Of a stretch of 64,000 nucleotides of DNA, positions 24,928 to 56,602 are shown piece by piece (the first letter of the stretch is position 1; the number at the start of each line of letters is the position of its first letter). Source of the DNA: a virus (taxonomy: Duplodnaviria; Heunggongvirae; Uroviricota; Caudoviricetes); IMG/VR virus record IMGVR_UViG_3300018489_000278. The stretch is one strand, 5' to 3'. The position numbers and the translations under genes are program-made. The notes beneath the pieces are model-generated. The model had not been told where the DNA came from and made no database searches. It saw only the letters and a program-made list of their open reading frames with translations.

Positions 24928-25779
24928 ATGGTAATTAATGAAGAGTATATTGATAGAAGTATAAACACAACAATAGACATAGTCAAGAATGCTCATTATA
25001 GAATATTATATAACTATTCGGAAAAACACAAGAAGTGGAAAGCTGAAATAGAATTAATATTCTCCATTGAGAAAGATTTGTTTAGTCACATAAATAAGTC
25101 TTTTCAATTTCTTGTTCCTAGTTATGTAGCAGTAGGTCATCCAAATGAGAAATACGAGTTTTATTTGTTGCCAGTATTTGTGAAGAGTGGTTTAGTTGAC
25201 ATGGGTGATAGTTATTACATGAGAAGTGTTTGTAATACATACAGTAAGGATAGAAAGTTACTTGAGAGAAGAACAGAGAGAGCTGTAAAGATGTTCAAAG
25301 ATTATTTTGATGATAATTTTGTAGAGTACGCTAAAGAACATTTTCATAGGATACCATCGGATATAAAAGAAACAAGAGATTTTAGTAAAACACAAAATTT
25401 GGATCTTTCTATAGATACAAAAGCATCAGTTTTTTGGTCTCCACAAGTTTCAGCAGACTATCGTTATACAGTAGATATTCGCACACGTGCGAAAAGTCAT
25501 AGCAGTAAATTATTGTTAGCGATGTACGAACATATTCGTGAGTATGTTTTAGATCATAACAATAAATGGGGTATAACAAAAGTATTAGAAACAGATTGCA
25601 TACCACAGCGGATGTTAGATGGTAATTATATTATGGAAATGAGTATCAGTCATCCATTAAGCGATTCCTTATCTAAAGGGGATATTATAGAAGCACAGAA
25701 GAAATGTTTAGAATATACAATCAATGTATACGATTCTTTTGTCAAAAAGATTATACATAGTAAAGAGGAAGAAATTTGA
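24928..25779 (+). CDS. Hypothetical protein (283 aa) with a YxFYLLP hairpin-like motif
   Basis: EKYEFYLLPVFVKSG resembles the signature of the downstream paralog families. Confidence 0.3.
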   Translation: MVINEEYIDRSINTTIDIVKNAHYRILYNYSEKHKKWKAEIELIFSIEKDLFSHINKSFQFLVPSYVAVGHPNEKYEFYLLPVFVKSGLVDMGDSYYMRSVCNTYSKDRKLLERRTERAVKMFKDYFDDNFVEYAKEHFHRIPSDIKETRDFSKTQNLDLSIDTKASVFWSPQVSADYRYTVDIRTRAKSHSSKLLLAMYEHIREYVLDHNNKWGITKVLETDCIPQRMLDGNYIMEMSISHPLSDSLSKGDIIEAQKKCLEYTINVYDSFVKKIIHSKEEEI

Positions 25780-26546
25780 ATACAGATGTTAGCGTTTCAG
25801 AGATAATGAAACAAGTGCAAACAGCAGTACAAATAAGTGTAAACGAAGAGGCTAAAGCGTTAACGGGAATTCTAATTCTGTTTCTTCCTGCCGAGGTTAA
25901 AAAAGTTAATAATGAAGAAATAGTTACTTTATCTCCGTTGTTTCAGTCTCAAGATTTTCTTGAATTTGATACAGTTCAGATTGGTGATAGATGGCCTGGT
26001 TCTTCTGTTATAAAAAATGGTAGTGACGTGTATCTTGCTAAAGGTTTTTTATTCAGTACGAATACTCTTGATGCAGAGGCAAAAGAAAAATTGATAAAAG
26101 AGATAGAGGAGGCAAAGCAGAGTATATTGCAGCAAATACATAATATAGTGGAGTTTAACATAGATAAGATAAAGCAACAGCCTTCTAATTTCTTTTCTAG
26201 TAAAAAATTAGCGTTGCCTGAAGGTGATATTGCAATTAATATATCTGAGAAATGCGTTTTTATAACATCAACAGAAAGATATCAGTTTAATTTTATTGCG
26301 ACACTTAAATCCGATAATAAAAAACTATTAAATAGGTTGTTATCTTTTGTGTCTGAATATTTTAAAGGACAGTTTGAATATCGCATTTCGTCGTTAAATA
26401 CCACTGTAAATCAATCATTCGCTTCAAAATTCGTGTGGGTTGATTCTTGTCCTTCGACTGTGTCTGTGAAAGATATGAGAGACTTCTTTGACGGCCATGC
26501 AAGTTATTTCTTTAAAATGTGCGATAAGTTTGTCGAAAAAAAGTAG
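25776..26546 (+). CDS. Hypothetical protein (256 aa)
   Basis: Overlaps upstream stop (ATGA); LILFLPAEV motif. Confidence 0.3.
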   Translation: MNTDVSVSEIMKQVQTAVQISVNEEAKALTGILILFLPAEVKKVNNEEIVTLSPLFQSQDFLEFDTVQIGDRWPGSSVIKNGSDVYLAKGFLFSTNTLDAEAKEKLIKEIEEAKQSILQQIHNIVEFNIDKIKQQPSNFFSSKKLALPEGDIAINISEKCVFITSTERYQFNFIATLKSDNKKLLNRLLSFVSEYFKGQFEYRISSLNTTVNQSFASKFVWVDSCPSTVSVKDMRDFFDGHASYFFKMCDKFVEKK

Positions 26547-26590
26547 AAAAAGATGCAGTGCAAGACATAGAAAGATAAAAGGAGAAGTAA

Positions 26591-27046
26591 ATGAGAGAGC
26601 CAAGAGATGTTGAAGAGAATAAAGAGTACTACAAAAAGATACCACAAATAGATCCAACAGATGTTGCCATAGAGACAGAAGGACACAAAATTAAAGTTCA
26701 CATAGATAATGACATTTCTTTTTTGTATCCTGCGTCTGAAACATACTATAAAGTTACTTTTACTGCTACATTAGAAACAGGAAGTCAAGAAGTATTAAAA
26801 AGGTTGGTCGGTGAGTTGATGACTCAATACGACAAGGATTCGCTTCCAACAAAGATAGTAGAAAATGTTAAAAAGACAGAGGATAAACATTATTATGCTA
26901 CTTTTCAGTGGGTAGATGTTATTGAGACAAAATCGTCAGAGTCTGTTATACAGAGTCTTGTTTCAGCTCATATATTCACCTTTGATACGAGAGTTTATAA
27001 TATAGTAAGTAAAATAGAACGAGAAAATTCTATAAATGAGTTATAA
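26591..27046 (+). CDS. Hypothetical protein (151 aa)
   Basis: Intact ORF with RBS. Confidence 0.3.
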   Translation: MREPRDVEENKEYYKKIPQIDPTDVAIETEGHKIKVHIDNDISFLYPASETYYKVTFTATLETGSQEVLKRLVGELMTQYDKDSLPTKIVENVKKTEDKHYYATFQWVDVIETKSSESVIQSLVSAHIFTFDTRVYNIVSKIERENSINEL

Positions 27047-28335: not shown

Positions 28336-30413
28336 ATGTCAAGACTTATTAAAACAGAAGACGGTAAAATTGTTGAATTTGATCAGTCCGTTGTAATGGA
28401 AACTATTCAGAAGGTTGGTTCTATTACTTGTGAGATTCCACCAGATACAACTCAATTTTTGGCGAATATTGTTATAACAGAGCTATTCCAAAATGATAGT
28501 AATGGTGGTGTCCCTGTCGATATAAGAGAAGTGCAGAAAAAAGTTGCAGAAGTGTTAATGAGAAAAGGTTTTTATGACACAGCAATCCATTACGTAGCAT
28601 TATCAAAAGATCGGTTAGCAGTACCAGAAATTAAACAAGAAGTAAGTAGTAACAAAATTGACATATTAGATCTAATGAGTTCATACTTAAAAGAAGAGAC
28701 ATGGGAAGTACACGAAAATGCCAATATTGATTACTCAATACAAGGATTAAAGGCATTTATTACAAGCAAAGCAGAAGAGATATATTGGCTTGAAAAAGTT
28801 TTCCAAAAGCTGTTTCAGATCTACACAAAGATGGCTTTGTACACATTCACAACTTAGGTTTTCTTGGTAGCTACTGTGTAGGATGGGACCTTGAAGACCT
28901 TATAAGAAGAGGTTTTGGTGGTGTACCTTCAAAACCATATTCAGTTCCTGCAAAACACTTTTCTTCTATATTAGGGCAGATGATGAATTTCCTCTTTACT
29001 CTTCAAAACGAAGCAGCAGGTGCTGTAGCATTTAGTTCATTAGATACTCTATTAGCACCTTTTGTTTATTTTGACAAGCTTACCTTCAAAGAAGTAAAAC
29101 AGCAAATTCAAGAGTTTGTTTATAACATGAACCAAACAATGAGAACAGGTGGGCAATCCCCATTTTCAAATATTACAGTTGATCTTACTCCTCACAAGCT
29201 GTTAAGGAATAGACCTGTTATTATAGGTGGTAAAGAAATAAAAGAATACACATATGGTATGTTCCAAAACGAAATGGATATGATAAATAAAGCATTATTT
29301 GAAGTATATCTTGAAGGAGATGGCCACGGCAGACCTTTTACTTTTCCAATTCCAACAATAAACATATCAAAAGATTTTAACTGGGATAATCCTATTCTTG
29401 ATCCTCTGTGGGAGGCAACAGCGAAGTACGGTATTCCTTATTTTGCAAATTACATTAACTCGGACTTAAAACCAGAAGATGCCAGGTCAATGTGTTGCAG
29501 GCTTAAGCTTGATGTAAGGCAGTTGCAAAGCAAAGGTGGTGGATTATTCGGTGCAGCACCTCTTACAGGTTCTGTTGGCGTTGTTACAATCAACTTGCCT
29601 CGTCTTGCTTATTTATCTAAAGATGAAGTTAGTTTTTTCTCTTCGTTAAACGATGTTATGGATGCAGTAAAAGAAGGATTAGAGAAGAAGAGAGAAGCTG
29701 TTGAAAGATTTACAGAGATTGGGCTTTATCCTTATTCTAAAATTTACCTTGAACCTATAAAAGAATCAACAGGACATTATTGGAATAATCATTTTTCAAC
29801 TATTGGTATTATTGGTATGAACGAAGCTCTTCAAAACTTGTTTGGCAGAGATGTGAACATTGGCACTGAGAAAGGTATAGAGTTTTCCGTTAGAGTTTTA
29901 CAACATATGAGAGATAGATTAGTTAAATATCAAGAAGAGACAGGACATTTATACAACCTTGAGGCAACGCCTGCAGAATCTACTTCTTATTCTTTAGCAT
30001 TAAAAGATAAAAGAAAGTATCCAGATATTATCACAGCAGGAACAGACGATACGCCTTATTATACAAATTCAACACAACTTCCTGTTAATTATACAGATGA
30101 TCCATTTGAGGCAGCTGAGCTTCAAGAGCCAATTCAAAAATTGTACACAGGCGGCACAACACAACATTTCTTTTTAGGTGAGAGAATTACCGCAAGTTCT
30201 GCTAAATTATTTGTCAAAAAAATGCTTGAGAACTTCGAGCTTCCTTACATTACACTTACACCTACATTCTCTATTTGTCCTAAGCATGGATATATACCAG
30301 GTGAACATGAATTTTGTCCGTACTGTGACGAAGAACTGAAACAGAAAGCAAAAGAGGGTGACTTGAATAATAGTCAAAACAGTGTTAAAATAGATCTGAA
30401 GATTAATATATGA
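28336..30413 (+). CDS. nrdD: Anaerobic ribonucleoside-triphosphate reductase (class III), one frame change at the A5 run near 28793
   Basis: GFVHIHNLGFLGSYCVGWDLEDL and RSMCCRLKLD motifs; C-terminal CPKHG...CPYC zinc ribbon; 28336-28857 and 28794-30413 are in different frames joined at gaaaaag. Confidence 0.75.
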
Positions 30414-30437: not shown

Positions 30438-31298
30438 ATGGAAAATGAGAGTTTTGACGAAGCTAAAAACACAGTAGAAGATCTAAAAAATCAGTTCATA
30501 GCTAAACTCAACAACTTATACACAAAGGACATAGAAAAAATACTCGTGCAACCTATTAAAAGAATAATAGATAATTACACTGTTTATGGATATGCATCTT
30601 TGATAGAGACGAAAGATAAAAACATTGCTGTTAAGAGATACTTATTACCTGCAGAAAAAAAAGAGCAATACGAAGATTATTTGGTTATTAGACCTTTTGA
30701 CTTAAGTAAAAATTGTCTTGCAGGTTCTGTTAGAGATATGAGTAAAGTATGGAAGCTATCAGATGGAAATGTTTATGTAGTTGTAGAAATAGCTAATGAA
30801 GTTGAAAAAAACGCGAACTTGGACGTCCTTACAAAAAGTTATGTCAAACAAATGGATAAAGATTTTTCATTGATTGAAGAAAAGTATAATGCAGCTAAAC
30901 AGAAGATAACACAAGAGTATAGGGTATCAGATTATTTTGATATAAAAGTGAATAGTAAAATTGCTTATTCTATTTATACAGATAAGAATTTGCTTTACAA
31001 CACATTTGACGACAATTGGTATATTGAAGCAACGATGTACATACCAGAAACAATAATGAAAAAGGCGCATATAAACGAAGATACGCCTTTTAACATGTTC
31101 GGTCCCAGCGTTAATGCACTTATAAATATTAACAAAAATACAATTATGCTTAACGGAAGAAAAGTAAAACAGTTGCACATGTATATATACGAGAGCAAAG
31201 ATTCCAATGAGGTAGAGAACACATATAATAAGACAATACAAAAAATTGTTAGTTTTATAGAAAGTCAGTTACAACAGAATAAAGAAAGTGAGAGATAG
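30438..31298 (+). CDS. Family A paralog 1 (VYAYA-YYLP family), unknown function
   Basis: NYTVYGYASL...VKRYLLPAE; KLSDGNVYVVVEIANEVEKN; NWYIEATMYIPE. Confidence 0.5.
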   Translation: MENESFDEAKNTVEDLKNQFIAKLNNLYTKDIEKILVQPIKRIIDNYTVYGYASLIETKDKNIAVKRYLLPAEKKEQYEDYLVIRPFDLSKNCLAGSVRDMSKVWKLSDGNVYVVVEIANEVEKNANLDVLTKSYVKQMDKDFSLIEEKYNAAKQKITQEYRVSDYFDIKVNSKIAYSIYTDKNLLYNTFDDNWYIEATMYIPETIMKKAHINEDTPFNMFGPSVNALININKNTIMLNGRKVKQLHMYIYESKDSNEVENTYNKTIQKIVSFIESQLQQNKESER

Positions 31299-31328: not shown

Positions 31329-32513
31329 ATGGATGATACACTAAAAGCAAAGGAGTCAGATTATAACCATGTGTATTCACAAGCAGTAGAAAATGTAGAA
31401 TTGGAGAAAGGTGTTTCTATGTCTAAACGGGTCTTTTTAGAAGAGAATATTCACAATTTAAGCGACAGCGGTGTTTACTATGCTGTTCTTTCAGTATATT
31501 TACCTATCGAAGGTATCGATGCTCAAATTCGTGAACTTGCCAAAAAATTGTCTTTTTTTATTGATGTAAAAGGAGAAAAAGTAAAAATTTCGGCAGATAT
31601 GTCAGATACAGGTAGTAAACTTAAACTTGTCAACGGTAATCAGTATATTTATTATCGTATTAGCGATATGTTCACAGACAAACAGGATGGCATTAGATAT
31701 GTTGAGGATGTGAAAAACAATATTCTCGTCAGAATCTCGGAACTTTACAAAAATAGAAGTATTGATATGTTGTGTAATCCTATAAGTAGAAATATAGTAG
31801 ACTATAAGGTTTATGCTTTTGCGGAGTTGAAACATTTATCTACAAAAGACTTGGTTGTTCATAGGTATTACTTTCCTTGCGAAAACGAACAAGCAAGACC
31901 TCCAAGAGGTTTAGTAAGAGGAGCGAGCGATATCGCAAAACATTACAAATATAAAGCCTCTTATCTTCAATCTGATTTTAATGGAATGTCTTATTTTGTT
32001 TTAGAAGTGGCTGACGAAGTAGAAAAAAATATTGACAAAAATACATTAGAGAAAGAGCATAGTATAAAAATAAATGCCGATTTAGAGACAGCACAAGACC
32101 TTTTTGAAGGGTTTAAGGATATCGATAGTAAAGAGTACGAAGATAGGCAAACTGGTTCTATTTTGATAGGAGGGAAGGAGACAGATGTTATAATTGATAA
32201 AAAAGCTGAATACAATGAAGCTATGAACGAGTGGCTTATAACAGCAAATATCTACATACCGGATAATGTTGCAAGAGCATTGAAGCTTAATAATTCTGTT
32301 TTAGATTCATTATCTCAAGAACATTTACTTTTCTTTGTAGATAAGGATAAGATAAGACTGCCTTCGACTGGGAAGAATGTAAGAAAAATACAATTAAATG
32401 TGTTTGATGTAGATACATTGGAAAATGCAGAGAAAGTGTTTCATGACGGATTCAACGCACTTATATCTCATATGAATAAAATAGCTCAAGCAAGCAAAGT
32501 AGAGGAGAAATAA
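31329..32513 (+). CDS. Family A paralog 2
   Basis: DYKVYAFAEL...VHRYYFPCE, RGLVRG, YFVLEVADEVEKN, NEWLITANIYIPD. Confidence 0.5.
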   Translation: MDDTLKAKESDYNHVYSQAVENVELEKGVSMSKRVFLEENIHNLSDSGVYYAVLSVYLPIEGIDAQIRELAKKLSFFIDVKGEKVKISADMSDTGSKLKLVNGNQYIYYRISDMFTDKQDGIRYVEDVKNNILVRISELYKNRSIDMLCNPISRNIVDYKVYAFAELKHLSTKDLVVHRYYFPCENEQARPPRGLVRGASDIAKHYKYKASYLQSDFNGMSYFVLEVADEVEKNIDKNTLEKEHSIKINADLETAQDLFEGFKDIDSKEYEDRQTGSILIGGKETDVIIDKKAEYNEAMNEWLITANIYIPDNVARALKLNNSVLDSLSQEHLLFFVDKDKIRLPSTGKNVRKIQLNVFDVDTLENAEKVFHDGFNALISHMNKIAQASKVEEK

Positions 32514-32518
32514 AGCGT

Positions 32519-33694
32519 ATGATGAAAGATGAAAAAATAAATCACCAGATTTCTTCTATTTTAGTAGGGCAAATCAAACTCGATGATAATGTATACGATC
32601 AAACAAGAGTTTTCATAGAACATTGGATAGAACAAGATGATTATAAATCATTTTTTTATACACAATACACTCAAATTTTTTTGTTATCTGACAAGTACGA
32701 CTACATTATACCCGAGTTTTCTAATAGGAGTGGAATGTTAAGATTTAAACTTGGCTATGAAGTTACTCTTGACGTTGAGCCATTTCATGCAAATGCAGAG
32801 AGGATTGGTAATGAGTATTATCATGCTATCACTATTGAAGAAAAAATCCATGATATTGATACAGCTATCGAAAAAATAAAGGAATATAATGAAACGCTGT
32901 CTAATTATTTCACCCGTCTCTACAAAAAGAATATAGGTAAAATAGTTGTTTCTCCTCAAAAAGTTTCTTGTGAAGATCAAACAGTTTATGCATACGCTTC
33001 CATAGGATTAGATGATAAAAAGAAGAAGAAAGTTATTAAATATTATTATTACTTACCATACGACATACAAAATAGCACAGTAGCAAGAGGATTCAAATCT
33101 GCCAAAGAACAATTAAAAGAAGTACCAGATCATGTAGATGATAATATTTTCCACGGTAGAGTTCTTTCAGATGGTAATATCTATTCACTTTTGATTGTTG
33201 AGACAGAAGTTAATAAATCTGTTAGTGAAATAAAAGATAAGATAAACAATGATTTGTCCATGATACATGACTTATATCCAAAAGTTATGCAAGAGATTCA
33301 AAAAGAACACGAAAGTGTTGGTAGTATGCATATATTCAAAGGATATAAAAACATAGATGTATATTATAAAGATTCGTTTGTGTTTCCTGAAGAAGAGTAT
33401 AATTGGGTAATGCATAGTAGCATATACATTCCTGTTAGTGCTTTTGACAACTACGAGCAATATGTGTTAGCAAAAGATGTTGTTCAAGATACAAATAGAA
33501 ATTATCGTTGGAGCGTAAGAGTGGACAATCCTCGAGAAATGTTTAATGGTGAAAATTGCTATGTGTTTTCTATTAGATTAGAGTTTAATGACGTAACAGA
33601 GGCAGAAGAAATGGCTAATAATGTTAGAAAACAATTTGTAGATCTTTTAACGGATAAAGTGTTTTCTCATTCAGTAGAGGAGCAAGAAAGATAA
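32519..33694 (+). CDS. Family A paralog 3
   Basis: DQTVYAYASI...YYYYLPYD, TVARGFKS, YNWVMHSSIYIPV. Confidence 0.5.
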   Translation: MMKDEKINHQISSILVGQIKLDDNVYDQTRVFIEHWIEQDDYKSFFYTQYTQIFLLSDKYDYIIPEFSNRSGMLRFKLGYEVTLDVEPFHANAERIGNEYYHAITIEEKIHDIDTAIEKIKEYNETLSNYFTRLYKKNIGKIVVSPQKVSCEDQTVYAYASIGLDDKKKKKVIKYYYYLPYDIQNSTVARGFKSAKEQLKEVPDHVDDNIFHGRVLSDGNIYSLLIVETEVNKSVSEIKDKINNDLSMIHDLYPKVMQEIQKEHESVGSMHIFKGYKNIDVYYKDSFVFPEEEYNWVMHSSIYIPVSAFDNYEQYVLAKDVVQDTNRNYRWSVRVDNPREMFNGENCYVFSIRLEFNDVTEAEEMANNVRKQFVDLLTDKVFSHSVEEQER

Positions 33695-33732
33695 TTGTAT
33701 GAAGACAAAAGAGTATATAAGAGGTGTAAAAA

Positions 33733-34904
33733 ATGGATAGTCAAGAGAACGAGATAAATTATGATTATTCTTCAATGTCTCTCATTGACAGTATTACATT
33801 AGATAAAGATATAGTGCGAGATATTGTGCTTGTGTTTCATCACACTATTCAAGCAGATACATCATCCGATATTGCTACCCATCAACTTACATCAGAAGTG
33901 TATTTTCCTGTGACTATAAGTAGTTCTGCTGTAGAAGAAATTATATCTAGTAATGTTTATTTGTCAGTCTTTATCGATATCAGAAAATGGAAGATTAATC
34001 TTAAAAGGCTTTTTTCTTATTCTGATAAGATATATGACGACAGGTTCTGTAAGGTTATACTATCTGTCTCCGGTAGTCCTAAAGACTTAGTTAAAAAAGC
34101 AGAGCAAATAGAGCAAGGCATATCTAAAAGTATAAAAGAAGCATATAAAACTAAGGTGGGCGAGTTATTGGTACCTTCTATGCATGTTGATATTGAAGAT
34201 AATAAGAAAGTGTATGCTTATGCAACGATATCTCATGGCAATAAAAAGGATAAAGTAACATTTTTCTATTACCTTCCTTGCCACACGGATTATCCTAAAT
34301 TAGTTAGAGGTCTTAAAGGCGTAGAAAGTCGACTAATGGAGGATAACTTTTCTTTTAACGAAGTTGTTTCACTTTCAAAAGGCAACACATTTAGCGTTGT
34401 TGCAATTGAAGAAAGAGTTCAAAAACAAGACATAGAAGCAACAAGAAGATGGGCAACGAGAAAAATGGAAGATATGCTTTTTAGTATAGAGAATGATTAT
34501 AAAAACTACATGGCAGAAATTAAGAAAGAAAAAACTATAAACAGTCAACAGAAATATATATAGGTGCAAGAAGAATCCCTATTTTTATTGAAAATCGTCT
34601 CTGTTTTAACGAAGATATTCCTTCTTATTGGTATGTTTATTCTACTGTTTATATTCCTGTTGATGAGCAATCTGAAGACGCAATAACACCTGAAGAGTGG
34701 GAGCTTGTAGAAAAATATGTTAAAGGTTGGGAATTTGCACGAGGTAGTTTTAAAGGATACTCCTGCGAGGTATTAGATAAAGGTGTATATGATCTCTATT
34801 CGATGCAAGAAGCGGAAACAGCAGCTGATGAGAATGTGATTATGCTTATTCAATTAGTCTATAATGTTTTAAATAACAAAATAAGAAGAGGTGAAGAGAG
34901 ATAA
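33733..34904 (+). CDS. Family A paralog 4, frame change near 34560
   Basis: NKKVYAYATISHG...FFYYLPCH, KLVRGLKG; the C-terminal block SYWYVYSTVYIPVDE is read in a different frame across 34569-34904. Confidence 0.45.
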
Positions 34905-34918
34905 GTGAAAAACATAGT

Positions 34919-35179: not shown

Positions 35180-35196
35180 GTAGTGTTTTTAATAAT

Positions 35197-36213: not shown

Positions 36214-36286
36214 CACCAGAAATAAGGGACATCACTAACCATATTACTAATATTAGTAGTAAAAAATCTTCATTGAACGAGAGCAA

Positions 36287-37156: not shown

Positions 37157-37159
37157 GTC

Positions 37160-38325: not shown

Positions 38326-38377
38326 TAAAACTTTTAAAATTATATACAAAAAAGTTAAATTTGTGGTATAATAGGGT

Positions 38378-38962: not shown

Positions 38963-38963
38963 G

Positions 38964-42432: not shown

Positions 42433-42441
42433 GAGGATAAA

Positions 42442-42925: not shown

Positions 42926-42928
42926 GAG

Positions 42929-43237: not shown

Positions 43238-43241
43238 CACT

Positions 43242-46106: not shown

Positions 46107-46890
46107 AGAGTATTATACTTATACGATAGATGATAATATAGATGTTCTTTTTAGTGTTCTGTATAAAGATCATGATGTTGAAGTTACAGTATTCTTGCCC
46201 ACAGCAGGGGATGATTCACCTTATTTGAAGTATGAACTATTAGATCCGGGTGTAAAGATTTTCAGAGAAGAACTTGATAACAATTTTGGCAGGCTAACAC
46301 ACATAAAAGTTAAAGCAAATGAAACATCATATTATCTTGCCAGCGATAAGATATTTGAGTTTCCCTCTTATTATGATTTTAATCGAATCAAGAAAGAAGT
46401 TTTGGATATCATAGAAGAGACATTTAATACCATTAAAGGCGTCTATTTACACAATAAACATATGTTAAAGCAAGATTTTTCAACGACTAAATTATTCACA
46501 CTTAAGAACAAAACTGTAGATGGACAAGAAATTCGAGTTTATATTAAGTGGGATGTCTTTTACCATTTATTGCCTAAAATGTGGTATGTTGAACTTTCGA
46601 TATTTTTGCCAGCAGATGAGAAAAGTGGACACGAAAAACCTATTCCTGAATTAAGATGTAAAAATTTATTAGCTCTTGAGAAAAAAATTTTTGATGTTTG
46701 TGACTTAGTAACAACTGAACCCGTATGTATTGGAAATGAGTGGTTCTATGCGTTAGAGAACGAAGCTGCTTATAAAGTAACCGGTAGCGAAGCTGACATG
46801 CGGAAAGAAATAGAAGAGAGAACGACTAAAATTATTAGTATACTTGATAATCTTGTTAAGAAAAACAGATCTGCTATGGTAGAGAGGTGA
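46093..46890 (+). CDS. Family B paralog 2
   Basis: DNIDVLFSVLYKDHDVEVTVFLPTAGDD; KMWYVELSIFLPADEKSG. Confidence 0.5.
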   Translation: MEYIEEYYTYTIDDNIDVLFSVLYKDHDVEVTVFLPTAGDDSPYLKYELLDPGVKIFREELDNNFGRLTHIKVKANETSYYLASDKIFEFPSYYDFNRIKKEVLDIIEETFNTIKGVYLHNKHMLKQDFSTTKLFTLKNKTVDGQEIRVYIKWDVFYHLLPKMWYVELSIFLPADEKSGHEKPIPELRCKNLLALEKKIFDVCDLVTTEPVCIGNEWFYALENEAAYKVTGSEADMRKEIEERTTKIISILDNLVKKNRSAMVER

Positions 46891-46896: not shown

Positions 46897-47694
46897 TTGG
46901 AGAAAGAATATATAATTAGGAATATAGACGATAAAATACAGATCACTTTTGATATTGAGTATAAATTTAATGAAGGTATAGCATATATTCATCTTATATT
47001 ACCTGTAAATAAATCAGGTTTTCTTATTGAAGAGCTACAGAGTAGCAAAGAAAGTGTTTTAGGGAAAAAATTATGGAAAATGTGGGGCAAGGAAGTCTTA
47101 TCAGGATCTAATCACAATAATCGTTTTAGAGAAGTATCTATTCCTTTTTATATACCTAACAACAATATGTTCGTGGCAAAACAAGTTGTTTACGATGCGA
47201 TAGACAGCATCACAAATAAACTTAAGCAGATATCAACAGAAAATAAAAGAGAAATGAGTAAGAACTTCGAAAAAGAAGAAACGATAGTATTAGGCAACAA
47301 AACAGCGAATAACACGATAATACAAATCATATTGAAAGAGTTTTTCTTTTTTGATACTTACGATCGGGAATGGTGCTACATACTACATGTCGGACTACCT
47401 TCAGAAGTGCAACAGGGGAGAATTATCCCAAGCACAAAGATATTAAGAATAGCAGATAAAAATGAAATCCTATCAAAATATCACTTGTTTCTTGATGCTA
47501 ATGCAGATACAGAAACAATTGGGAAGGAGCGATATGTATTCTTGAGAAGCAAAGTTTACTCGTGTGGAAACGATTATAATAAAGCAGTGCAAATTGCAGA
47601 AGAGATAAAAACACAAGTTGTCAATAGCATAGAAAAAGAAGTATTGAAAAACAGAGAACATGATATAATGTTAATAAAGAGTGAGCAGAGGTGA
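46897..47694 (+). CDS. Family B paralog 3
   Basis: DDKIQITFDIEYKFNEGIAYIHLILPVNKSG; REWCYILHVGLPSE. Confidence 0.5.
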   Translation: MEKEYIIRNIDDKIQITFDIEYKFNEGIAYIHLILPVNKSGFLIEELQSSKESVLGKKLWKMWGKEVLSGSNHNNRFREVSIPFYIPNNNMFVAKQVVYDAIDSITNKLKQISTENKREMSKNFEKEETIVLGNKTANNTIIQIILKEFFFFDTYDREWCYILHVGLPSEVQQGRIIPSTKILRIADKNEILSKYHLFLDANADTETIGKERYVFLRSKVYSCGNDYNKAVQIAEEIKTQVVNSIEKEVLKNREHDIMLIKSEQR

Positions 47695-48124: not shown

Positions 48125-48125
48125 T

Positions 48126-49312
48126 ATGAAACAAGTGATATTAAAAAATGGTTTGCCTGTAAACTTTGAAATCATTAAGAAAGAAACAGGAGAGACGGTG
48201 GTAGATTTTTCTTTTAATTTTCCGTCAGACGATACATACGAATACTTTAATAATTTATTCCTAGAAGCGAAAAGATCTGATGAGCCACTAACAGAAAAAT
48301 GCAAAGTAAATATCTTTGATAATAGAGCTTATTCGAAATTTCATGAAGATAAGTATGAAGTTTCTATGGAACAGGTAAAAGATTTTATTAAAACGCCAGA
48401 AGAGCTTATAGACGCAATTGTTAATAGGTTAAACAATAATATAGATAAAAGCGTAGCAGAACAGTCTGTATCAAAAACAATTACTTCTTCTTATGTTTTG
48501 TCTTCAAGAGATGTGTCTTTGAATATTCGATTTACTGAAGAATATAAATTCCGATCAGGAACGTGGCAATGCACTATTACTATGTTTTGCCAGAAGAGCC
48601 GGAGCCTCAAAAATGGATTGAACACATGAAGAGAGCAAAATATCTCAATCATTATTTAGTAGATATGTATACGCCGACGCTAATGTGGACATTGTTTTTA
48701 GCTGATTTTTGGGGCCATAGCGATCCTAGTATACCTGGCTATGTTTATGAACATTGTCATTATGAGTTGCAGAAATTGACTATTAATGATTTTGATGTTA
48801 TCAAAAATGGTGTAGATGCAATAAAAAAAGATACGATAGAAAACCTGCAACGAGTTCTTGACAAGAATGTTTTTTATTACGACTGCATACCTGATAAAGT
48901 CACAGAGATTAATATAAATAACAAGAAAATACAAATTAGGAGGAATTTTGAGTATAATTCTTATCGCAATCTGTTTGATGTTAATGTTTATTTTATTGTT
49001 CCTGCAAGACCTGACGGTAGACTAGATCGTGATATTGCTTTTTTAGTAGATAATTTGAGTGACAGTGCTTTTAGGCGTCCTTTAATGGCGGAAGAGATTG
49101 AGTCTAAGGGTGTTTTTTCTAATAAAGATTCTACTCTTACGCTTTATCTTGGTGATTTTGAGTACCAAATGAATAAAATACCTTTTGAATACAGAAAAAG
49201 AGTCAATGGTTTATATGAATATGCAGACATGAGAAGTGAACGCTTTGCGAAACGAATAGAAAGAAAGATACTTAATAGGTATAAACAAAAAATGTTAGAA
49301 GAGGCGAGGTAG
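48126..49312 (+). CDS. Family A/B-related paralog, frame change near 48560
   Basis: 48126-48629 and 48563-49312 overlap in different frames; the junction reads ...KFRSGTWQ / AMHYYYVLPEEP (YYLP signature); later NVYFIVPARPDGRLDRDIAFLV. Confidence 0.4.
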
Positions 49313-49376: not shown

Positions 49377-50561
49377 ATGAAACAGCCTGATGTTGTAGAA
49401 AAAAGAAAATTGTTGTCAGGTGATGAGGTTTGTTTTTTAGCATTTAAACAGGATTCTTCAAAGTATCGCGTCATGGTATTGCTACCTTTATCGAAAAATG
49501 TAGAGGAGAATTTTGTTAATTTTGTATATCCGGATACACGAGTAAACAGTAGTTTTGATTTTTTATATAACAGAGTGAATAATGTTTCTTTCGAAGGTAA
49601 AGACTATTTTTGTTTTGAAACAGACAAAGAGAAAGCAATTTCTGTCAATTTGTTTAATAACTTCATTGATAGCGTAGTTAATAAATTAGAGAATAATTGG
49701 AAATATAACCAGGCTAAGAAAATGTTTGATCGTGAATATTTAACAAGTTATTATGTTGGAGACGGCGATAAAAAGTATTTTTCCATATTCATAGTAGTTT
49801 TAGTTATAAGCCTAGCGTACAAAAGTGGTTGTTTTCTTTAGAGTTGTTTGTTCCAGAAGCTCCAGATAAAGAAGGCTCTGTTCCTTTTCTTTTAAGGACA
49901 CCTGATACTAATTTTAATCTTTTAAGGATAAAGATTTTTATTCCATTGTTGTCGATGGAGAAAAATATCAACGCGAGACATTAGTTGAAAGATCCAGCGA
50001 TGACATAAAAGAACTTATACAATATAAAGAAGAAATAGAGAAAGATACAGTGGATATGGTTACGAAGGTATACAACTATAATTTAGCGATAGATGATAAA
50101 GTTAAGTTTCTTAACAACAACAATAAACAAACGGTTGATATAGGCAAAGGAATTAGCGTACAATTTGAGAAGAAGTTTTCTTTTAATCCGTTAAAAGACA
50201 GAGTATCTGTTAGTGTTATTTTTTATTTGCCTACGGAGGCAGACGGTACTGTAAAAAAGAGCTAATCAATAAACCTTTACCTACGGTTAATGCAGACTTT
50301 CATAAAATTCACCAAGATAGAGAAACAAAAGAAATATATATTACGGAGAATACAGGGCAATTGGTTCATGGCAATACAAGAAAGATAGATGATTTAAAAT
50401 TTGGTTGTAAACTTTGCAATACAAATAAATTGGATATACAAGAGGCTTTAAAAAGATTAGATGACATGGATCGGACTGCAGACAAAGTAGCTAGTGGTTT
50501 TATTCAAGTTTTAAAGAAGATATATCAAAAAAATACGCAGGCATCGTTAGAGGAAAGATAA
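49377..50561 (+). pseudogene. Family B-like gene(s) broken by several frame changes
   Basis: 49377-49841 frame 0, 49772-49998 frame 2 (LFVPEAPDKEGSVPFLLRTPD), 49918-50265 frame 1 (SVSVIFYLPTEADGTV), 50361-50561 frame 0; all carry family B motifs. Confidence 0.35.
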
Positions 50562-50563
50562 TT

Positions 50564-51412
50564 ATGGAGCTGATAGGAATATCTTTAAACAACTATACAT
50601 TAAAAGGGAAGACGCATTCTTTAGATATAAAAATGTATGAAGAGCATTATATAGATGAGAATAAAGTCTTGCATTGTCGCTTATCAGCGTTCCTCCCATC
50701 TCTTGACGGCAAGTTGCATCCACTTCTTGGTAGTAACAATTTTAGAGTACTCGATGAACTTCTTACTGAACAGTTTGGTCGTTCAGAAGAAGATAAAAAC
50801 TTGAAAATTGAAGGATATGTCTCTGTCTCATCCGTGACAAACATGGGAATAATTTCTCTTGATACTTCACGAGACAGAATGAGTCGATTTGAAAATTATT
50901 ATGTTAATTCGCTTACTGATATATTGTTGTATAACGAAAAAGCATTATATTACGCTGTTCCAGATAAACATGTGTATATTACTGTAGAGCAACAAATTAT
51001 ATTAATTGACATATCTTTTTCATATGATACTTACGCAAGAACAGTATTTGCTAAAGTTGATTTTTACCTTCCAACAGATCACAAAGGAATGCTTCACCCT
51101 TTGTTAGTCGATAGGCATAAAAGAGGAAAAGCAGCAATATACGATAATAGCAATGGTCGTTTCTACAAGCTCGTTCCCGATGTAGGAAGGTTAAACAGTG
51201 CAGGTAATTTCAGGGTTGTTACGACGCGTTGGAGCTGTGATAATATAGATACGCATGTTGTTGGTATAAGTTCTTTAAAAACAGATGTGGATACTCATCT
51301 TGCACGTATATTTAAAAGAGCAGAAGATCAAATAGATAAAAAGATAAACAAATGGTCAAAAGAAGTTGAAGAACTTGCTAAAGCTAATTCAAGAGAGGTG
51401 TTAGATAGATGA
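50564..51412 (+). CDS. Family B paralog with two modules
   Basis: LHCRLSAFLPSLDGKLHPLLG and AKVDFYLPTDHKGMLHPLLVD...GRFYKLVPDVG. Confidence 0.5.
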   Translation: MELIGISLNNYTLKGKTHSLDIKMYEEHYIDENKVLHCRLSAFLPSLDGKLHPLLGSNNFRVLDELLTEQFGRSEEDKNLKIEGYVSVSSVTNMGIISLDTSRDRMSRFENYYVNSLTDILLYNEKALYYAVPDKHVYITVEQQIILIDISFSYDTYARTVFAKVDFYLPTDHKGMLHPLLVDRHKRGKAAIYDNSNGRFYKLVPDVGRLNSAGNFRVVTTRWSCDNIDTHVVGISSLKTDVDTHLARIFKRAEDQIDKKINKWSKEVEELAKANSREVLDR

Positions 51413-52635
51413 CAGAAAATACAGAAATAATATCTAGAGATGTGTATAGAAGAAATTTAATTGATGGGACACCTATCTTATTTGAGGTATCTACATTTGA
51501 GAATAAAACGAACAAGCAATTGGATAGGAAGATAAGGGCTTTTTTGCCTTATATAGATTACATGGAAGGACCTCACACCGCGAGGAAAGAAGAACCTTTT
51601 ATTTTTTACTCTCCATATATGATATGTGGCTTTGTGTTTAATAGGGTACCTAGGACAGAAGTTATAGATGTTGGAGGACAGATATTTTTTGCGATAGAAC
51701 AGACTGCGCAAGTTTTTTATCCTGACATTATAGATGACATTGTTAATAAATTGAACGAGAACTACAAATATAACACGGAGCAAAAGCACAAAGAAAAGCA
51801 TGTACAGACAGGTTACACTTTAACTTTAGGATCTGTATCTATTCAGTTCTTCGTTCATGATGACATTGAGTTTGTGCCAGATGCAGATATGTGGCTTGGT
51901 TATACTCAAATCTTTCTTCCTATGGAGACAGAGCGTGATAAATTTCCAAGTTATTATGGTATCTCGCATTATATAGCCAATAAAATAGTAAGAGTAGGAC
52001 ACAGTAGATTAAATGCAGGATGGGGAACACCTTCAAACAGATCTATAATGCCATTATATATGGTAGATGGTATAAGCCATGCACTTAGAAGAGATATAAG
52101 AGAAGTAGAACTTGAAATGGAAAATATGCGAGAAGAAATTTTTAATACTTTGAAGTCTGTTTTTGATTACAATGTTGCTGTATTTTCGCATGACTTCAGT
52201 CCGATGTTACAATCCGAGACATTCCACATAGGTAAAGGCATTGATTTAAAAGTAAAGTATGATAGTATTGATTACGACTCAGAAGAAAACACTTTTATTG
52301 TTGGCGTCTCTTTATATTTTCCAACAGGAGCGGATGGTTATTTAAGAAAAGAGTTAGTAAGTCATAATACGAGTCTTAGGATAAAAGACGATGCTAGTGG
52401 AATGCAGTATCTTTTTGAGAAAGACTTGGGCGTCCCAACTGCAGATGGAAGCAGATTGTTGAAGGTGTCTTTCTATATTCCTGATGATTTTGCTCCAGGT
52501 AGCAACAATTATGCTAAAGGATTAAAAGATGAGAACTTTGTTGGTTTATACAAAAAATTGGATAAGAGAGTATCAAGAATAGTGTCGTCTCTTCGTAAGA
52601 TTTATGAGTACAATACGCTTGAAGAGGTAAGGTAA
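51409..52635 (+). CDS. Family B paralog with four modules
   Basis: IRAFLPYID; YTQIFLPMETE; VGVSLYFPTGADGYLRKELVS...GMQYLFEKDLGVPTADG; KVSFYIPDD. Confidence 0.5.
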   Translation: MTENTEIISRDVYRRNLIDGTPILFEVSTFENKTNKQLDRKIRAFLPYIDYMEGPHTARKEEPFIFYSPYMICGFVFNRVPRTEVIDVGGQIFFAIEQTAQVFYPDIIDDIVNKLNENYKYNTEQKHKEKHVQTGYTLTLGSVSIQFFVHDDIEFVPDADMWLGYTQIFLPMETERDKFPSYYGISHYIANKIVRVGHSRLNAGWGTPSNRSIMPLYMVDGISHALRRDIREVELEMENMREEIFNTLKSVFDYNVAVFSHDFSPMLQSETFHIGKGIDLKVKYDSIDYDSEENTFIVGVSLYFPTGADGYLRKELVSHNTSLRIKDDASGMQYLFEKDLGVPTADGSRLLKVSFYIPDDFAPGSNNYAKGLKDENFVGLYKKLDKRVSRIVSSLRKIYEYNTLEEVR

Positions 52636-53182
52636 TGGCGGAGAATCTTGTTATAGATTACAGTGAGTATACGCTTATAGATGATAGTAATGTTTATTTT
52701 GAAGTGGCATTAGTCGATGAAGAAGAGCAAAAAGATTATTCGCTTTTTCTTATCGCCTATATTCCTATAAGTGCAGGTAATATTCGTCATTATATTGGCG
52801 ACAGCATATATGGTTTTATTGATATTAATAAATTTATTAGAAGCGAGGATACAATTTATTTTAATGGTGTGCATTGCGACAAATATACTTTCTCTTGTAA
52901 TTCTTTAGAAGAAGCAGAAGTTCTTAAAAAAACATTATTAATACAGCTAATTTTAATATTCGAAAGAATGATATGGAGGTTAGTAAAGAATATAGTAAGG
53001 CAAAAAAGATTAATTTTGTGTATAAAGGTGCTTCATTAGACATTATAACTTGCAAAGATTTTCGTTTTGATAAATTTAATGGTAGGTGGTATTGTTTTGT
53101 GTATGTACTTTTACCTAAAGATAAAGAATTTAACAAGTTTGTAGATCCTTTTTCAGTAAAGAAATTATTTCTGAATATATAG
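52635..53182 (+). CDS. Family B-related small paralog, probable frame change near 52980
   Basis: 52635-53039 (SLFLIAYIPISAGN) and 52973-53182 (RWYCFVYVLLPKDKE) overlap in different frames. Confidence 0.35.
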
Positions 53183-53376
53183 CAGACAAAGACAAAATTT
53201 CTATTTATTTAGGAAGCGAACATGTTGTTTCAGGCGGTAGTCGTTTTGATGAATTTTTTGGCGATAATATCCATGATGATAATGTTATTAAAGAAGTTAG
53301 CAAAATCGCAAATCCTAATGACTACCTTTGTTTTGTTATAACAGAACCGACCACTACACTTCAGAATGCAGAGCTG

Positions 53377-53892
53377 ATGGCTGATAATTTTGCTTCAGAC
53401 TGTGTAAAAATATTAGACGATCTTTTTAAAAAAAATGTTGATTTGATTTCTTCACAAGATAGCTTCAATATTGCAAAAGATGTCAAGATAGATAAGAATA
53501 CGATAATTCATATTCGAAATAAATTTGCTTATTATTCCTACCATAATGAGGTTTTAGTGAAAGTCTCTTTATTTTTACCTACAGATGCATCAACAGGGCT
53601 TCTAAGGAATGATTTTGTTGATAAGTATAATTTACTAGGCAGGATACAAGATAGTACAAACAGAAGAATAATACTTGTACCTAATGTAGGTGTAAAAGAC
53701 GGCGAGTATAGAAGGATTGATCTTGGCCTCGTGTACGGAGAAAAAGATTTAAAGGTAAAAGGATTAATGCCATCGGACGGACTTATTGCATCAGCAAGAC
53801 ATAAATCAGATGTTTATACGCAGAGACTTATCAAGAATATAATAAATATGAGACGTTACAATATAGAAAAAGGTACGGTGATAGAAAGATGA
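53377..53892 (+). CDS. Family B paralog, single module
   Basis: VKVSLFLPTDASTGLLRNDFVDKYN...RRIILVPNVGVKDGEYRRIDLGLVY. Confidence 0.5.
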   Translation: MADNFASDCVKILDDLFKKNVDLISSQDSFNIAKDVKIDKNTIIHIRNKFAYYSYHNEVLVKVSLFLPTDASTGLLRNDFVDKYNLLGRIQDSTNRRIILVPNVGVKDGEYRRIDLGLVYGEKDLKVKGLMPSDGLIASARHKSDVYTQRLIKNIINMRRYNIEKGTVIER

Positions 53893-54028
53893 TTACCAAG
53901 CAGAAACTTATAGACGGAACTGAGTGTTTATTTGACATTGAAAAAATAGTAAGGGATACTCTGCAGTTTATGCTTTTGTTCCAGTAGATACATCAGATAA
54001 TAGACGCAGAGCTGCAATTCCTAAATTA

Positions 54029-55156
54029 TTGCAAGGACCCATATTGCCGAAGAACATAGAGGAAGGCGATAAGCTTGATGGTTCAATTGATACTTTTACT
54101 GTTATTGGTGGTAAATCTTATATAGTGCATAGATATGTTTGCAAAGAAAAGTTAGCGTTGCAAGTTGTTAACGATCTGTATGACATTCTTAATAATAATA
54201 TTGAATACAACCTCCGGATGATGACGAACGAATCTACAAGATTATTGACTTACAATATAGGCAATGACACAACGTCACTTGAAGTTAAATTTTTAGTTGA
54301 GCATAGATATATTCCAAGTGTTAGGAAGTGGATATACAACGTAGTGACATTTTTGCCGATAGAGGACACAATACCGTACTATCTTTTAGGTAATATACCA
54401 AAAGAAGAGCAAGATAGTCTTTATTTATCTTATTACATAGGTAATAGATATAATGCTGGAAATTTACTAGGTTCTTTTGATTATCATTGGGGTTTACCTA
54501 CATGTATAACTCTTGGCGAGCCTTTTTACGATAAGTTTAGAACAATGCCTGGGTACAGATTTATGCAGATTACTTTTAATGATAGTGATGAAGAAGCGAA
54601 TAAACAACAAGGAGCAGAAGTAGAAAAATTTATACAAGATACCATTGATACTTTATCTAAAATCTTTGAATATAACAGCATTATGATTCATAAGCAATAT
54701 ATGTTAAGTGAAAAGCAAATAGTTGGTCCAGATGAAAACGGACAATATATTAAAGTGATACTTACGAGGAATTTTTACTACAATACATACGCTAATGAAG
54801 TTAATGTTTTATTTTCTATTAAATTACCGGTGGAACCTGGCGACCCTGATTGTCGTGTCCATCATTTGTTAGTTGACAAAGATAAGAAATTTAAGATATA
54901 TACTGGGCAAAATACAGAATTTACGATAGAACCTACATCAGGTGTCATTGATAACAATCGCACGACAAATAATTATAGAAAAATATCTTTTTTGATGAGA
55001 TATATGGATAGAGGTGCTATTAATTTTAACGTACAAGATGGGAAACATACTTTTGACAAAGCTGAATTAGATACAAATGATTTAAAAAGAAAAATACGTA
55101 CTACGATAGAAGGGATATATAATTATAATAGACATGTATTAGAAGAAGAGAGGTGA
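54029..55156 (+). CDS. Family B paralog with two modules; true start probably upstream
   Basis: YNVVTFLPIEDTIPYYLLG and VLFSIKLPVEPGDPDCRVHHLLVD; the upstream frame reads SAVYAFVPVDTSD. Confidence 0.45.
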   Translation: MQGPILPKNIEEGDKLDGSIDTFTVIGGKSYIVHRYVCKEKLALQVVNDLYDILNNNIEYNLRMMTNESTRLLTYNIGNDTTSLEVKFLVEHRYIPSVRKWIYNVVTFLPIEDTIPYYLLGNIPKEEQDSLYLSYYIGNRYNAGNLLGSFDYHWGLPTCITLGEPFYDKFRTMPGYRFMQITFNDSDEEANKQQGAEVEKFIQDTIDTLSKIFEYNSIMIHKQYMLSEKQIVGPDENGQYIKVILTRNFYYNTYANEVNVLFSIKLPVEPGDPDCRVHHLLVDKDKKFKIYTGQNTEFTIEPTSGVIDNNRTTNNYRKISFLMRYMDRGAINFNVQDGKHTFDKAELDTNDLKRKIRTTIEGIYNYNRHVLEEER

Positions 55157-55159
55157 TTT

Positions 55160-55763
55160 ATGTTAATTAGTTTTGAAGGTATTGATGGTTGTGGAAAAAC
55201 AACTATTGCGAAAGCCGTCTATGAGAAGTTGTCTAATTTAAGCATGAAAGTATTGCTAACAAAAGAGCCTGGCGATACTAAAATGGTAAGTACATCCGCG
55301 ATATACTGCTTCAAAAAAACAATGCATTAGATCCTCTATCAGAGTTTCTTTTATTTGCAGCAGATCGTAGATTACATGTAAAGGAAGTAATAATTCCTCA
55401 TTTAAGAGAAAATTATGTGATTCTTTCTGATAGATTTATGGATAGTTCTGTTGCTTATCAAGGATATGGTAGAGGCGTACCTATCAGTTTTATAGAAAGC
55501 GTTCACAAAGAAATACTAAACGGCATAAGACCTGATATGACTTTTTGTTTGATCTACCAGTTAGTATAAGCTTGAGTAGACTAAAAGATAAAGACCGAAT
55601 TGAAAGGTACGGCGAGAAATTCTTCGCACGTGTGCGAAAAGGATATCTTACACTTGCAAAAAAAGAAGAAAATAGATTTATTATATTGGACGGTGAGAAA
55701 AATGTTGAGACTCTTGCTGATGAAGTTTTTACTACAATAATTAACCGCATTGAGGAGTGTTAG
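55160..55763 (+). CDS. tmk: Thymidylate kinase, read across three frames (two frame changes)
   Basis: MLISFEGIDGCGKTT P-loop, then LSEFLLFAADRRLHVKEVIIP...LSDRFMDSSVAYQGYGRG, then C-terminal piece 55545-55763. Confidence 0.7.
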
Positions 55764-56602
55764 ATATGGAAGAAGAAATAAACCGCACTGAGGATTATTC
55801 AATAAATGAATTAGGTATTACGATAAAGATTTTAGAGAAATATATTCAACAAGGCACACAATGGATTTGTGATTGCGATGTTTTGTTGCCGGTAGACGAT
55901 ACAATGTTACAAAAATATTCGATATTTGTTCCGTTGCGATACCTTATGAATATACATACTAATATAGGTAATAAATGGCTAAATCAATTTTATGGACAGC
56001 ATAGCGTAGTGTTATATAATTATTTAGGAGAAACTTTTCACTTTATTTCGTCAGATCTTAAACAACTTATGGGTGATATTGATGGTTTTAAAAAAGATCT
56101 CGTTTCTCTTTTGAATGTTATAGCTAAATATAATTTGGAAATGATTGAAAATGAAAAAGAATTAGAACCTATGCTGTTTAGTATAGATAGAGACATACAG
56201 ATTAGTTGTTACAGAAAAGTTATGTATGACACTTATAGAAGCGAAATTCAGATTCCAATAGAGATGCATTTGCCTGTAGAAGAAGATGGTTTGCTGAAGC
56301 GAGAGTTAGTTGATCCATCAGGTAAAAGATACTTATTTGACAACACTTTGACTTTTGCAAGAAAGCAATTTCTTGTTCCTTCTATTGGAGAATATGACGA
56401 AGCATTAAATGTGCGGAAAGTATATCTTACGTATTGGTCCCCAGATACATATAGTAGTGATTTGAATACAATGCTTGGTTTGAAATTGTTTAAAAAAGTG
56501 ATAGCCGAATCAAGTAGTTTAATTAAGAAGAATATTGCAGTGTTGGAGAAAGTATATCTTAAGAATCTTGAATTGGATAAAGTTTGCGAGAGTAAAAAAT
56601 AA
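55757..56602 (+). CDS. Family B paralog with two modules
   Basis: WICDCDVLLPVDD; SEIQIPIEMHLPVEEDGLLKRELVD...KQFLVPSIGEYDE. Confidence 0.5.
   Translation: MLDMEEEINRTEDYSINELGITIKILEKYIQQGTQWICDCDVLLPVDDTMLQKYSIFVPLRYLMNIHTNIGNKWLNQFYGQHSVVLYNYLGETFHFISSDLKQLMGDIDGFKKDLVSLLNVIAKYNLEMIENEKELEPMLFSIDRDIQISCYRKVMYDTYRSEIQIPIEMHLPVEEDGLLKRELVDPSGKRYLFDNTLTFARKQFLVPSIGEYDEALNVRKVYLTYWSPDTYSSDLNTMLGLKLFKKVIAESSSLIKKNIAVLEKVYLKNLELDKVCESKK

Follow-up and report, generated by a model that had tools for sequence, protein, structure and literature searches.

The closest described counterparts of the genes reported here are of two kinds. Class I chaperones of type III secretion and YbjN-like proteins (SycN, STM2138, ShcA, InvB, SicP, DR_1245, AmyR) are single-domain dimers, and a secretion chaperone is encoded by one gene beside its effector. 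Lineage-specific multigene families of large phages and giant viruses are tandem, co-oriented paralogues that take up a large share of the genome, vary in copy number, and are unannotated. We analyzed a 64,000-nucleotide stretch of DNA (hereafter the window; IMG/VR record IMGVR_UViG_3300018489_000278, catalogued as a Caudoviricetes virus), in which two families of paralogous genes, A and B, lie in such arrays. The repeated module of their products has a predicted α-β3-α-β2-α order, as in the chaperones. However, two or three modules are here fused per chain by long helices, about 20 paralogues stand in arrays, and the host is a Gram-positive-type thermophile with no type III secretion system in view. 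Unlike the phage and giant-virus families, these genes belong to a superfamily without a sequence match in PHROGs, GenBank phages, or IMG/VR (searched for close relatives only) and without a significant structural match in BFVD, on an element whose phage status is uncertain.

Families A and B are homologous and form one superfamily. This was proposed in a first-pass annotation of the sequence and is borne out by a profile-profile alignment, by cross-family matches of hidden Markov models (HMMs), and by the same module in the AlphaFold models of both families. Our preferred reading, which we put at about 60%, is that a single module of ~125 residues gave rise to one lineage-restricted, previously undescribed superfamily, whose members most likely serve as paralogue-specific protein-binding adaptors.

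All-versus-all BLASTP of the open reading frames (ORFs, named by their first position) recovered the two families where the first-pass annotation had placed them. Family A comprises the plus-strand ORFs 30438, 31329, 32519, 33733, 35197, 36287, 37600, and 39883 (E 1e-5 to 1e-21), and family B comprises ORFs 45294, 46093, 46897, 48126, 48563, 49377, 50050, 50564, 51409, 53377, 54029, and 55757. No A-B pair reached E ≤ 0.01. The annotation had named an HHalign comparison as the way to decide whether A and B belong together, with a lack of similarity counting against it; the comparison was run and the similarity is significant. With window sequences only, hhalign aligned A to B over 155 columns (Prob 91.9, E 6.9e-7). 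With enriched profiles (25 A sequences; 10 frame-corrected B sequences), the alignment covered 259 collinear columns, corresponding to two whole modules (Prob 96.7, E 4.3e-10, score 78.7). The B sequences are all paralogues from one genome because family B relatives were not found outside this one element. A reversed B profile scored 14.4 and column-shuffled profiles at most 14.3. A control shuffled in 12-column blocks gave a mean of 20.8 (standard deviation 3.5, maximum 30.9), so that the observed score lies ~16 standard deviations above it.

To compare single modules, we cut family A into AN, AM, and AC and family B into BN, BM, and BC. The strongest pairs cross the family boundary: AC-BM (E 6.8e-9) and AC-BC (8.4e-9), followed by BM-BC (2e-7), AN-AC (3.5e-7), AN-BC (1.1e-6), and AN-BM (1.5e-6). 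Each of these alignments runs in register over ~95–116 columns, and reversed controls gave E ≥ 0.04. AM and BN are the divergent modules, with full-length, in-register alignments at 5.6e-4 (AM-BM) and 1.8e-3 (AM-BN). The first-pass annotation had linked the families through the AM block "VYAYA...YYLP". The motif is indeed shared, but the strongest link runs from AN and AC to BM and BC, and AM is the most divergent module of family A. In a six-frame database with reversed decoys, the AC HMM found nine B frames (among them 51409 at 1.8e-8, 45294 at 5.4e-8, and 49829 at 3.5e-7) together with ORF 43866; the first decoy appeared at 0.033.

The resemblance between A and B could also be convergent, a short hairpin with an aromatic-Leu-Pro turn and amphipathic helices having arisen twice in unrelated families. 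The failure of BLASTP to pair A with B fits this, as does the shortness of the motif, similar strings of which occur in unrelated ORFs of the window. Convergence is nevertheless extremely improbable in our judgment: it is opposed by a collinear 259-column alignment far above its nulls, by the HMM cross matches, and by the identical predicted topology of the two families.

The AlphaFold model of ORF 31329 (predicted local distance difference test, pLDDT, 83.7; predicted template modelling score, pTM, 0.73) contains three tandem modules at residues 12–141, 146–268, and 270–393. In each, three long antiparallel strands are followed by a loop or short helices, then by at least two more strands, and last by a helix of ~30 residues. 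The model of ORF 45294 (pLDDT 77.2) contains two modules and one disordered excursion of 44 residues. Secondary structure strings assigned by DSSP repeat the order β1-β2-β3-(α)-β4-β5-long helix three times in the A model and twice in the B model.

The signature that the first-pass annotation had described, hydrophobic-(Y/F)-(L/I/F)-P, is real and occupies an equivalent structural position in every module class. A conserved proline ends strand β3 in 94 of 100 aligned modules (AN 23/25, AM 25/25, AC 21/25, BN 5/5, BM 10/10, BC 10/10), preceded by L, I, F, or V at −1 and mostly by Y or F at −2. As every module bears the signature, a protein shows it in two or three versions, which is why fragments looked like hybrids of the two families. 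The two ORFs singled out as hybrids, 37160 and 48563, are frameshift fragments of an ordinary A gene and an ordinary B gene, respectively.

In the window, the reading frames of many A and B genes are broken. L001, an 8.7-kb metagenome contig 93–96% identical to window 31346-38825, carries seven intact tandem genes of 372–395 codons. In the alignment with L001, what breaks the window versions of these genes are indels of one base within short runs of a single nucleotide, mostly A or T, at ~34528, 35178, 36009, 36168, 36266, and 37572. Four Joint Genome Institute (JGI) contigs (L005-L008), 99.8–99.9% identical to window 40561-61110, differ from it by 1-nucleotide indels only, nearly all in A/T runs, with zero substitutions (one ragged contig end excluded). 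The genes that are broken differ from assembly to assembly of the same element; the 50564 and 51409 genes, intact here, are the broken ones in other assemblies. Outside the superfamily, nrdD (28336-30413), dnaN (58547-59556), tmk (55163-55763), and the host gene lepA (122-1910) are each divided into two or three ORFs by single-base homopolymer frameshifts. The nrdD frame is split at ...YWLEKVF/KAVSDLHKDGFVHIHNLG, and dnaN becomes an intact frame of 369 codons once alternative alleles from other assemblies are chosen. The ORF starts without a Shine-Dalgarno sequence (35197, 36287, 53377) are exactly those of the internal fragments. Since near-identical assemblies differ by homopolymer indels of one nucleotide, since nrdD and dnaN are likewise hit, and since the L001 orthologues are intact, the fragmentation appears to be mostly technical, with indels of the sequencing-error type rather than gene decay.

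One frameshift is of another kind. ORFs 48126 and 48563 are separated inside a β3 hairpin (GTW/AMHYYYVLP), where the window has GG and GGG would restore GTWAMHYYYVLP. The context (window 48560-48630) is thus GG/GGG and not an A/T run, and it is identical in all three covering assemblies; the gene may be a true pseudogene, or frameshifting may be programmed at this site. The tmk breaks are likewise common to all assemblies that cover them. Such shared breaks, the number of interrupted A and B genes, and two segments missing relative to a close relative (one of 4.3 kb that holds three A genes, the other of 350 bp from within gene 26591) would be expected if the arrays were decaying in a degenerating integrated element, the frameshifts being real pseudogenisation. 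We consider decay very unlikely. Different genes are broken in different assemblies, the 1-nucleotide indels fall nearly all in homopolymers, genes of essential type (nrdD, dnaN) are affected in the same way and dnaN is healed by alternative alleles, and the L001 orthologues are both intact and under purifying selection. There is a practical lesson: in this assembly, homopolymer indels give rise to spurious small ORFs and apparent "hybrid" proteins, and gene calls over the whole window need frame correction before conclusions are drawn about genes.

After correction, the superfamily counts eight A genes, ten B genes, and one single-module gene, with ~49 modules in all (Table 1). Five B genes have two modules (45294, 46093, 46897, 50564, 55757) and five have three (48126+48563, 49377+49829, 51409, ~52635-53892, ~53892-55156). 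Together the genes cover 19,638 bp, or 31% of the window and 62% of the interval 24928-56602; the earlier figures of about half of the window and ~30 kb were too high.

Table 1. Superfamily genes, candidate relatives, and the AbiE pair within the arrays, with coordinates in the window
Feature	Coordinates	Strand	Evidence and remarks
A gene, two modules (middle and C)	30438-31298	+	BLASTP to A E 1e-21; AM 1.9e-33, AC 4.7e-23; Shine-Dalgarno at −11
A gene, intact, three modules	31329-32513	+	AlphaFold-modelled; L001 orthologue dN/dS 0.21
A gene, intact, three modules	32519-33694	+	BLASTP and HMM; P0001 95% identical; dN/dS 0.12
A gene, split	33733-34904	+	ORF 33733-34563 and shifted frame 34524-34901; 1-nucleotide indel in A run at ~34528
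A gene, split	34901-36050	+	ORF 34919-35179 (N module, INVYLPTV) and ORF 35197-36213; intact 395-aa L001 orthologue
A gene	36040-37156	+	N module fused in frame to the end of ORF 35197; remainder is ORF 36287-37156
A gene, split	37160-38325	+	ORF 37160-37711 (N module, YFTYVHFYLPCNY) and ORF 37600-38325
A gene, intact, three modules	39883-41082	+	BLASTP and HMM; L068 orthologue dN/dS 0.31
Single-module member, 139 aa	43866-44285	+	hhalign against BC E 1.5e-5, 119 columns in register
Three B genes, two modules each	45294-46106, 46093-46890, 46897-47694	+	BLASTP 1e-9 to 1e-18; AC HMM on 45294 5.4e-8
B gene, three modules	48126-49312	+	ORFs 48126-48629 and 48563-49312; BN, BM, BC HMM matches on two frames
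B gene, three modules	49377-50561	+	ORFs 49377, 50050, 50361; broken by A-run indels; HMM matches
B genes, intact	50564-51412 (two modules), 51409-52635 (three modules)	+	BLASTP, HMM
Two B genes, three modules each	~52635-53892, ~53892-55156	+	ORFs 52635, 52973, 53377, 54029; several frameshifts
B gene, two modules	55757-56602	+	BM 1.9e-38, BC 9.9e-48, AC 1.3e-3; downstream of tmk fragments
ORF 25776	25776-27046 with ORF 26591	+	Against BC module E 1.9e-3, 105 columns in register; borderline
ORF 24928	24928-25779	+	Best module match E 0.037 (15 columns), within the range of unrelated controls
AbiEi-like and AbiEii pair	38378-38962, 38964-39806	+	AbiEii Pfam E 5.8e-23; inside A array, not superfamily

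The split A genes are resolved by their relatives on L001. The gene at 33733-34904 has an intact orthologue of 392 aa there, and the AC HMM matches its shifted frame at 1.8e-20. Further indels make ORF 35197 read through into the next A gene. That gene, at 36040-37156, has an intact 372-aa orthologue (P0007), and the AN HMM matches its frame 36099-36302 at E 8e-6. The break between ORFs 37160 and 37600 is one missing A in an A7 run at ~37572, and the orthologue (P0008, 388 aa) is identical save for that indel. The two-module gene 30438 has closest relatives elsewhere (P0010, P0012, P0014) that have three modules. In family B, alleles of L005-L008 restore a 244-aa ORF at 49829-50563, leaving one shift in an A run near 49790. 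Between 52635 and 55156, consecutive modules on stop-free frames are matched by the BN, BM, and BC HMMs.

Membership of other ORFs was judged with hhalign against unrelated proteins, which reach E 4.5e-3 at best, over ~26 columns of short helical stretches. ORF 43866 scores well beyond this level, and the AC, AN, and BC HMMs match it ahead of all decoys. The first-pass annotation had also pointed to three upstream ORFs. ORF 34919 is a fragment of the A gene that includes 35197, the claim for ORF 24928 was not supported, and ORF 25776 is borderline. ORFs 25776 and 26591 are paralogous, the full-length homologue of 26591 matching 25776 at BLAST E 1.4e-6; by their N-terminal module only, they may be remote members of the superfamily, though this is not established. 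The link of ORF 24928 to 25776 is itself borderline (E 0.008–0.08). ORFs 47681, 26591, 24442, 41793, 42079, 42442, 42929, 43242, and 44626 were tried as members and rejected, none scoring above the unrelated control proteins in hhalign. An HMM search detected no further members within 10 kb downstream of the window.

Several small ORFs of 57–117 codons (41793, 42079, 42929, 43242, 44293; window 41793-43487 and 44293-44466) begin with a hairpin followed by a helix, for example HFYEISFRID, QYFTLKVNFD, PYFDLEVIIS, KHYRVSFFIH, and TYSVYTVSLFID. They have no significant relation to the A and B modules and may constitute a further family of small paralogues.

We searched for relatives of the superfamily in protein and genome collections. 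A word-indexed protein search with an A protein returned a sole relative, P0001, 95% identical and encoded on L001; such searches gave 1, 4, and 2 matches, near-identical copies only. An exhaustive HMMER search of 1.84 billion representatives with the A profile returned 29 proteins at E ≤ 1e-3, of which 27 are real family A clusters. About 20 of these are 372–407 residues long and the others are shorter fragments; further sequences came from the contigs that encode them. Neither a megablast search with 20 kb nor a tblastn search with an A protein matched GenBank phages (50,697 records). A single A protein found nothing among GTDB genomes or in IMG/VR, the latter searched for close relatives only. 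Ten members had no match beyond chance level in Pfam, PHROGs, NCBIfam, and PADLOC, the A profile had no relative among PDB sequences, and Foldseek against BFVD gave no match at E ≤ 0.001. Literature searches on Coprothermobacter phages and on chaperone-like or YbjN phage paralogues returned nothing relevant.

The sequence family and its multi-module architecture are new, and the module itself is probably on a known fold. In the fold comparison with the secretion chaperones, scores were too low and match lists too mixed for membership. A superficial likeness exists to the N-terminal domain of HicB-like/UPF0150 antitoxins, which also have a hairpin with a hydrophobic-Pro turn and a C-terminal helix starting T-x-E-E-A. 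This candidate was rejected, as neither structure nor profile matched the HicB N-terminal domain.

The arrays are co-oriented and tightly packed. The Shine-Dalgarno sequence of each gene (GAGG/GGAG) lies within the last codons of the preceding gene, 9–17 nucleotides before the start. Because of this arrangement, many proteins of window 30–57 kb (e.g., at 32500-32518, 37140-37159, and 38945-38963) end in ...EEER, ...EQER, or ...VER, and their metagenome homologues end alike.

Copy number ranges from 8 to at least 19 among relatives. In the related element L068/L069, 15 A genes in tandem precede the AbiE cluster, and the 39883 orthologue is also present. In L073, 96% identical in the flanks, the RNA ligase gene is directly preceded by a block of 4.3 kb (L073 4248-8571) with three extra A genes and a gene of 199 codons; the window lacks this block at 27097. 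At 26608, the window also lacks 350 bp of gene 26591 (L073 3406-3755), which shortens it from 268 to 151 codons. A whole A gene of 385 codons (L001 2338-3552) is absent from window 33680-33733, just after the stop of the 32519 gene. The breakpoints of this one-gene indel fall in the repeated gene-end sequence CAAGAAAGRTAA, which suggests that the arrays grow and shrink by unequal recombination between conserved gene termini. The locus is thus a specific example of how arrays can expand and contract at such termini.

The superfamily had been described as rapidly radiating, a description that the data do not bear out. Paralogues are only 16–30% identical, change is mainly whole-gene gain and loss, and ratios of nonsynonymous to synonymous substitution rates (dN/dS) against L001 or L068 orthologues are 0.12–0.58. 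In the neighbouring RNA ligase, thyX, AbiEi-like, and pilin-like genes, dN/dS is 0.06–0.09, and the superfamily values are 2–5 times as high. The family genes are thus functional and constrained, less tightly than the adjoining enzymes. The superfamily is old and maintained.

In our reading of the arrays, the module first duplicated within proteins, and whole genes then duplicated in tandem; whole-gene gain and loss by recombination at conserved gene ends makes array size differ between close relatives. The module, its duplication inside genes and from gene to gene, the operon-like packing, the turnover of whole genes, and the purifying selection are shown, and the function is inferred. The predicted topology is that of the polypeptide-binding type III secretion chaperones and YbjN, and a chain of two or three modules would be comparable to a chaperone dimer or trimer whose subunits are covalently linked. 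Most likely, each paralogue binds a different partner protein during establishment of the element in the cell, with host factors or defence proteins as candidates. The proteins are mildly acidic (pI 4.7–7.0) and contain no hydrophobic segment and no enzymatic motif; together with the raised dN/dS, this points to soluble, non-enzymatic protein-binding adaptors. More specifically, the arrays might be an expandable repertoire of covalently linked chaperone-like modules with which a large, uncultivated element would bind and neutralise many proteins of thermophilic Coprothermobacter, such as defence effectors or takeover targets, entire genes being exchanged through recombination at their conserved ends. 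We hold this only tentatively and think it unlikely; if true, these would be modular anti-host proteins of a new class. Its repertoire logic would be analogous to that of ankyrin and SUKH arrays, whose folds differ from the superfamily module.

The proteins could instead act on the element's own products, as assembly or export chaperones or structural parts for the virion, for injected proteins, or for a pilin-like apparatus encoded at 14.6–24.2 kb. The fold resembles secretion chaperones, the prepilin-like cluster and a secreted-type peptidase lie just upstream, and in a relative the A genes stand directly between the pilin-like cluster and the RNA ligase gene. Paralogous structural families are also known in very large phages. 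On the other side, stoichiometric structural parts would not usually vary so much in copy number between close relatives, the arrays lie in the midst of genes for replication and nucleotide metabolism, and no cognate substrate gene accompanies any single paralogue. We regard an own-product role as unlikely. Less likely again is a repertoire of immunity proteins or antitoxins resembling bacterial tandem immunity arrays, in which each paralogue neutralises a different toxin (a polymorphic or abortive-infection effector): no toxin genes or domains lie beside the arrays, PADLOC gave no match, and the match to TriX spans only 63 residues.

Several observations weigh against our preferred reading of one superfamily of protein-binding adaptors. 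AM, and BN of the three-module B genes, are tied to the remaining modules only at E ~1e-3 to 1e-4. The structure models were built on shallow alignments of 8–9 paralogues, and the 44-residue stretch of the B model falls below pLDDT 50. Neither CesT nor YbjN was matched in Pfam (10 members, E ≤ 1) or NCBIfam. No partner genes adjoin individual paralogues, unlike in classical secretion chaperones. The 48126/48563 frameshift and the tmk breaks may be genuine. Finally, phage identity is not established, as neither a capsid nor a terminase gene was seen in the stretch from 5 to 74 kb. If the adaptor reading is right, this element of thermophilic anaerobic digesters, at least 112 kb in size, devotes about one third of its sequenced part to one unannotated family. 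With the module, its boundaries, and its signature defined and the gene models corrected, the family can now be recognised and expressed.

The surroundings of the arrays bear on the nature of the element. Window 1-4994 is Coprothermobacter chromosome, 98.7% identical to the Coprothermobacterota metagenome-assembled genome (MAG) JAZIGN010000003, with lepA (in three ORF pieces), coaBC, gmk, and tdh. Homology to the MAG stops inside tdh at 4994, a gene that is intact in the MAG. From ~5 kb onward the G+C content is 31–35%, and nearly all long ORFs lie on the plus strand. The element side of the junction (32% G+C) starts with an N-terminally truncated SPFH/band-7 ORF (4984-5643). A 111.8-kb JGI contig with the same element would begin at ~5483 of the window, ~490 bp inside the junction; with this start, an insertion site and a chimera are both possible, and the junction could be either an insertion of the element into tdh or an assembly join.

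The first-pass annotation had listed RNA ligase, nrdD, thyX, tmk, and Abi genes among the arrays, and these were found, tmk as a fragment and AbiEii by its Pfam match. A DNA methylase and an STIV B116-like protein are encoded in the same interval, and an M50 protease, dnaN, and dnaB downstream of the arrays. Pfam gives no match for the AbiEi-like protein. In the related element L068 (16112-18777), three AbiEi-like paralogues surround one AbiEii, in the same position as in the window. Further downstream (L076 11000-21275, ~63–74 kb on the window scale) are genes for an AAA_33 kinase-like protein, a 70-residue NrdD glycyl-radical fragment, and an actin-like (ALP_N) segregation protein. With this segregation protein present and no capsid or terminase gene seen, phage status is not established, and the element may be a phage-plasmid or large plasmid rather than a lytic phage.

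Upstream of the arrays, window 14635-24208 encodes five proteins with prepilin-type N-termini (GFTLIE motif; ORFs 14635, 20887, 21641, 22186, 23615). Inside this cluster, ORF 18587 encodes a 762-residue trypsin-like peptidase with copper-amine-oxidase-N and fibronectin-III domains. Such a type IV pilus- or pseudopilus-like gene set is unexpected on a mobile element.

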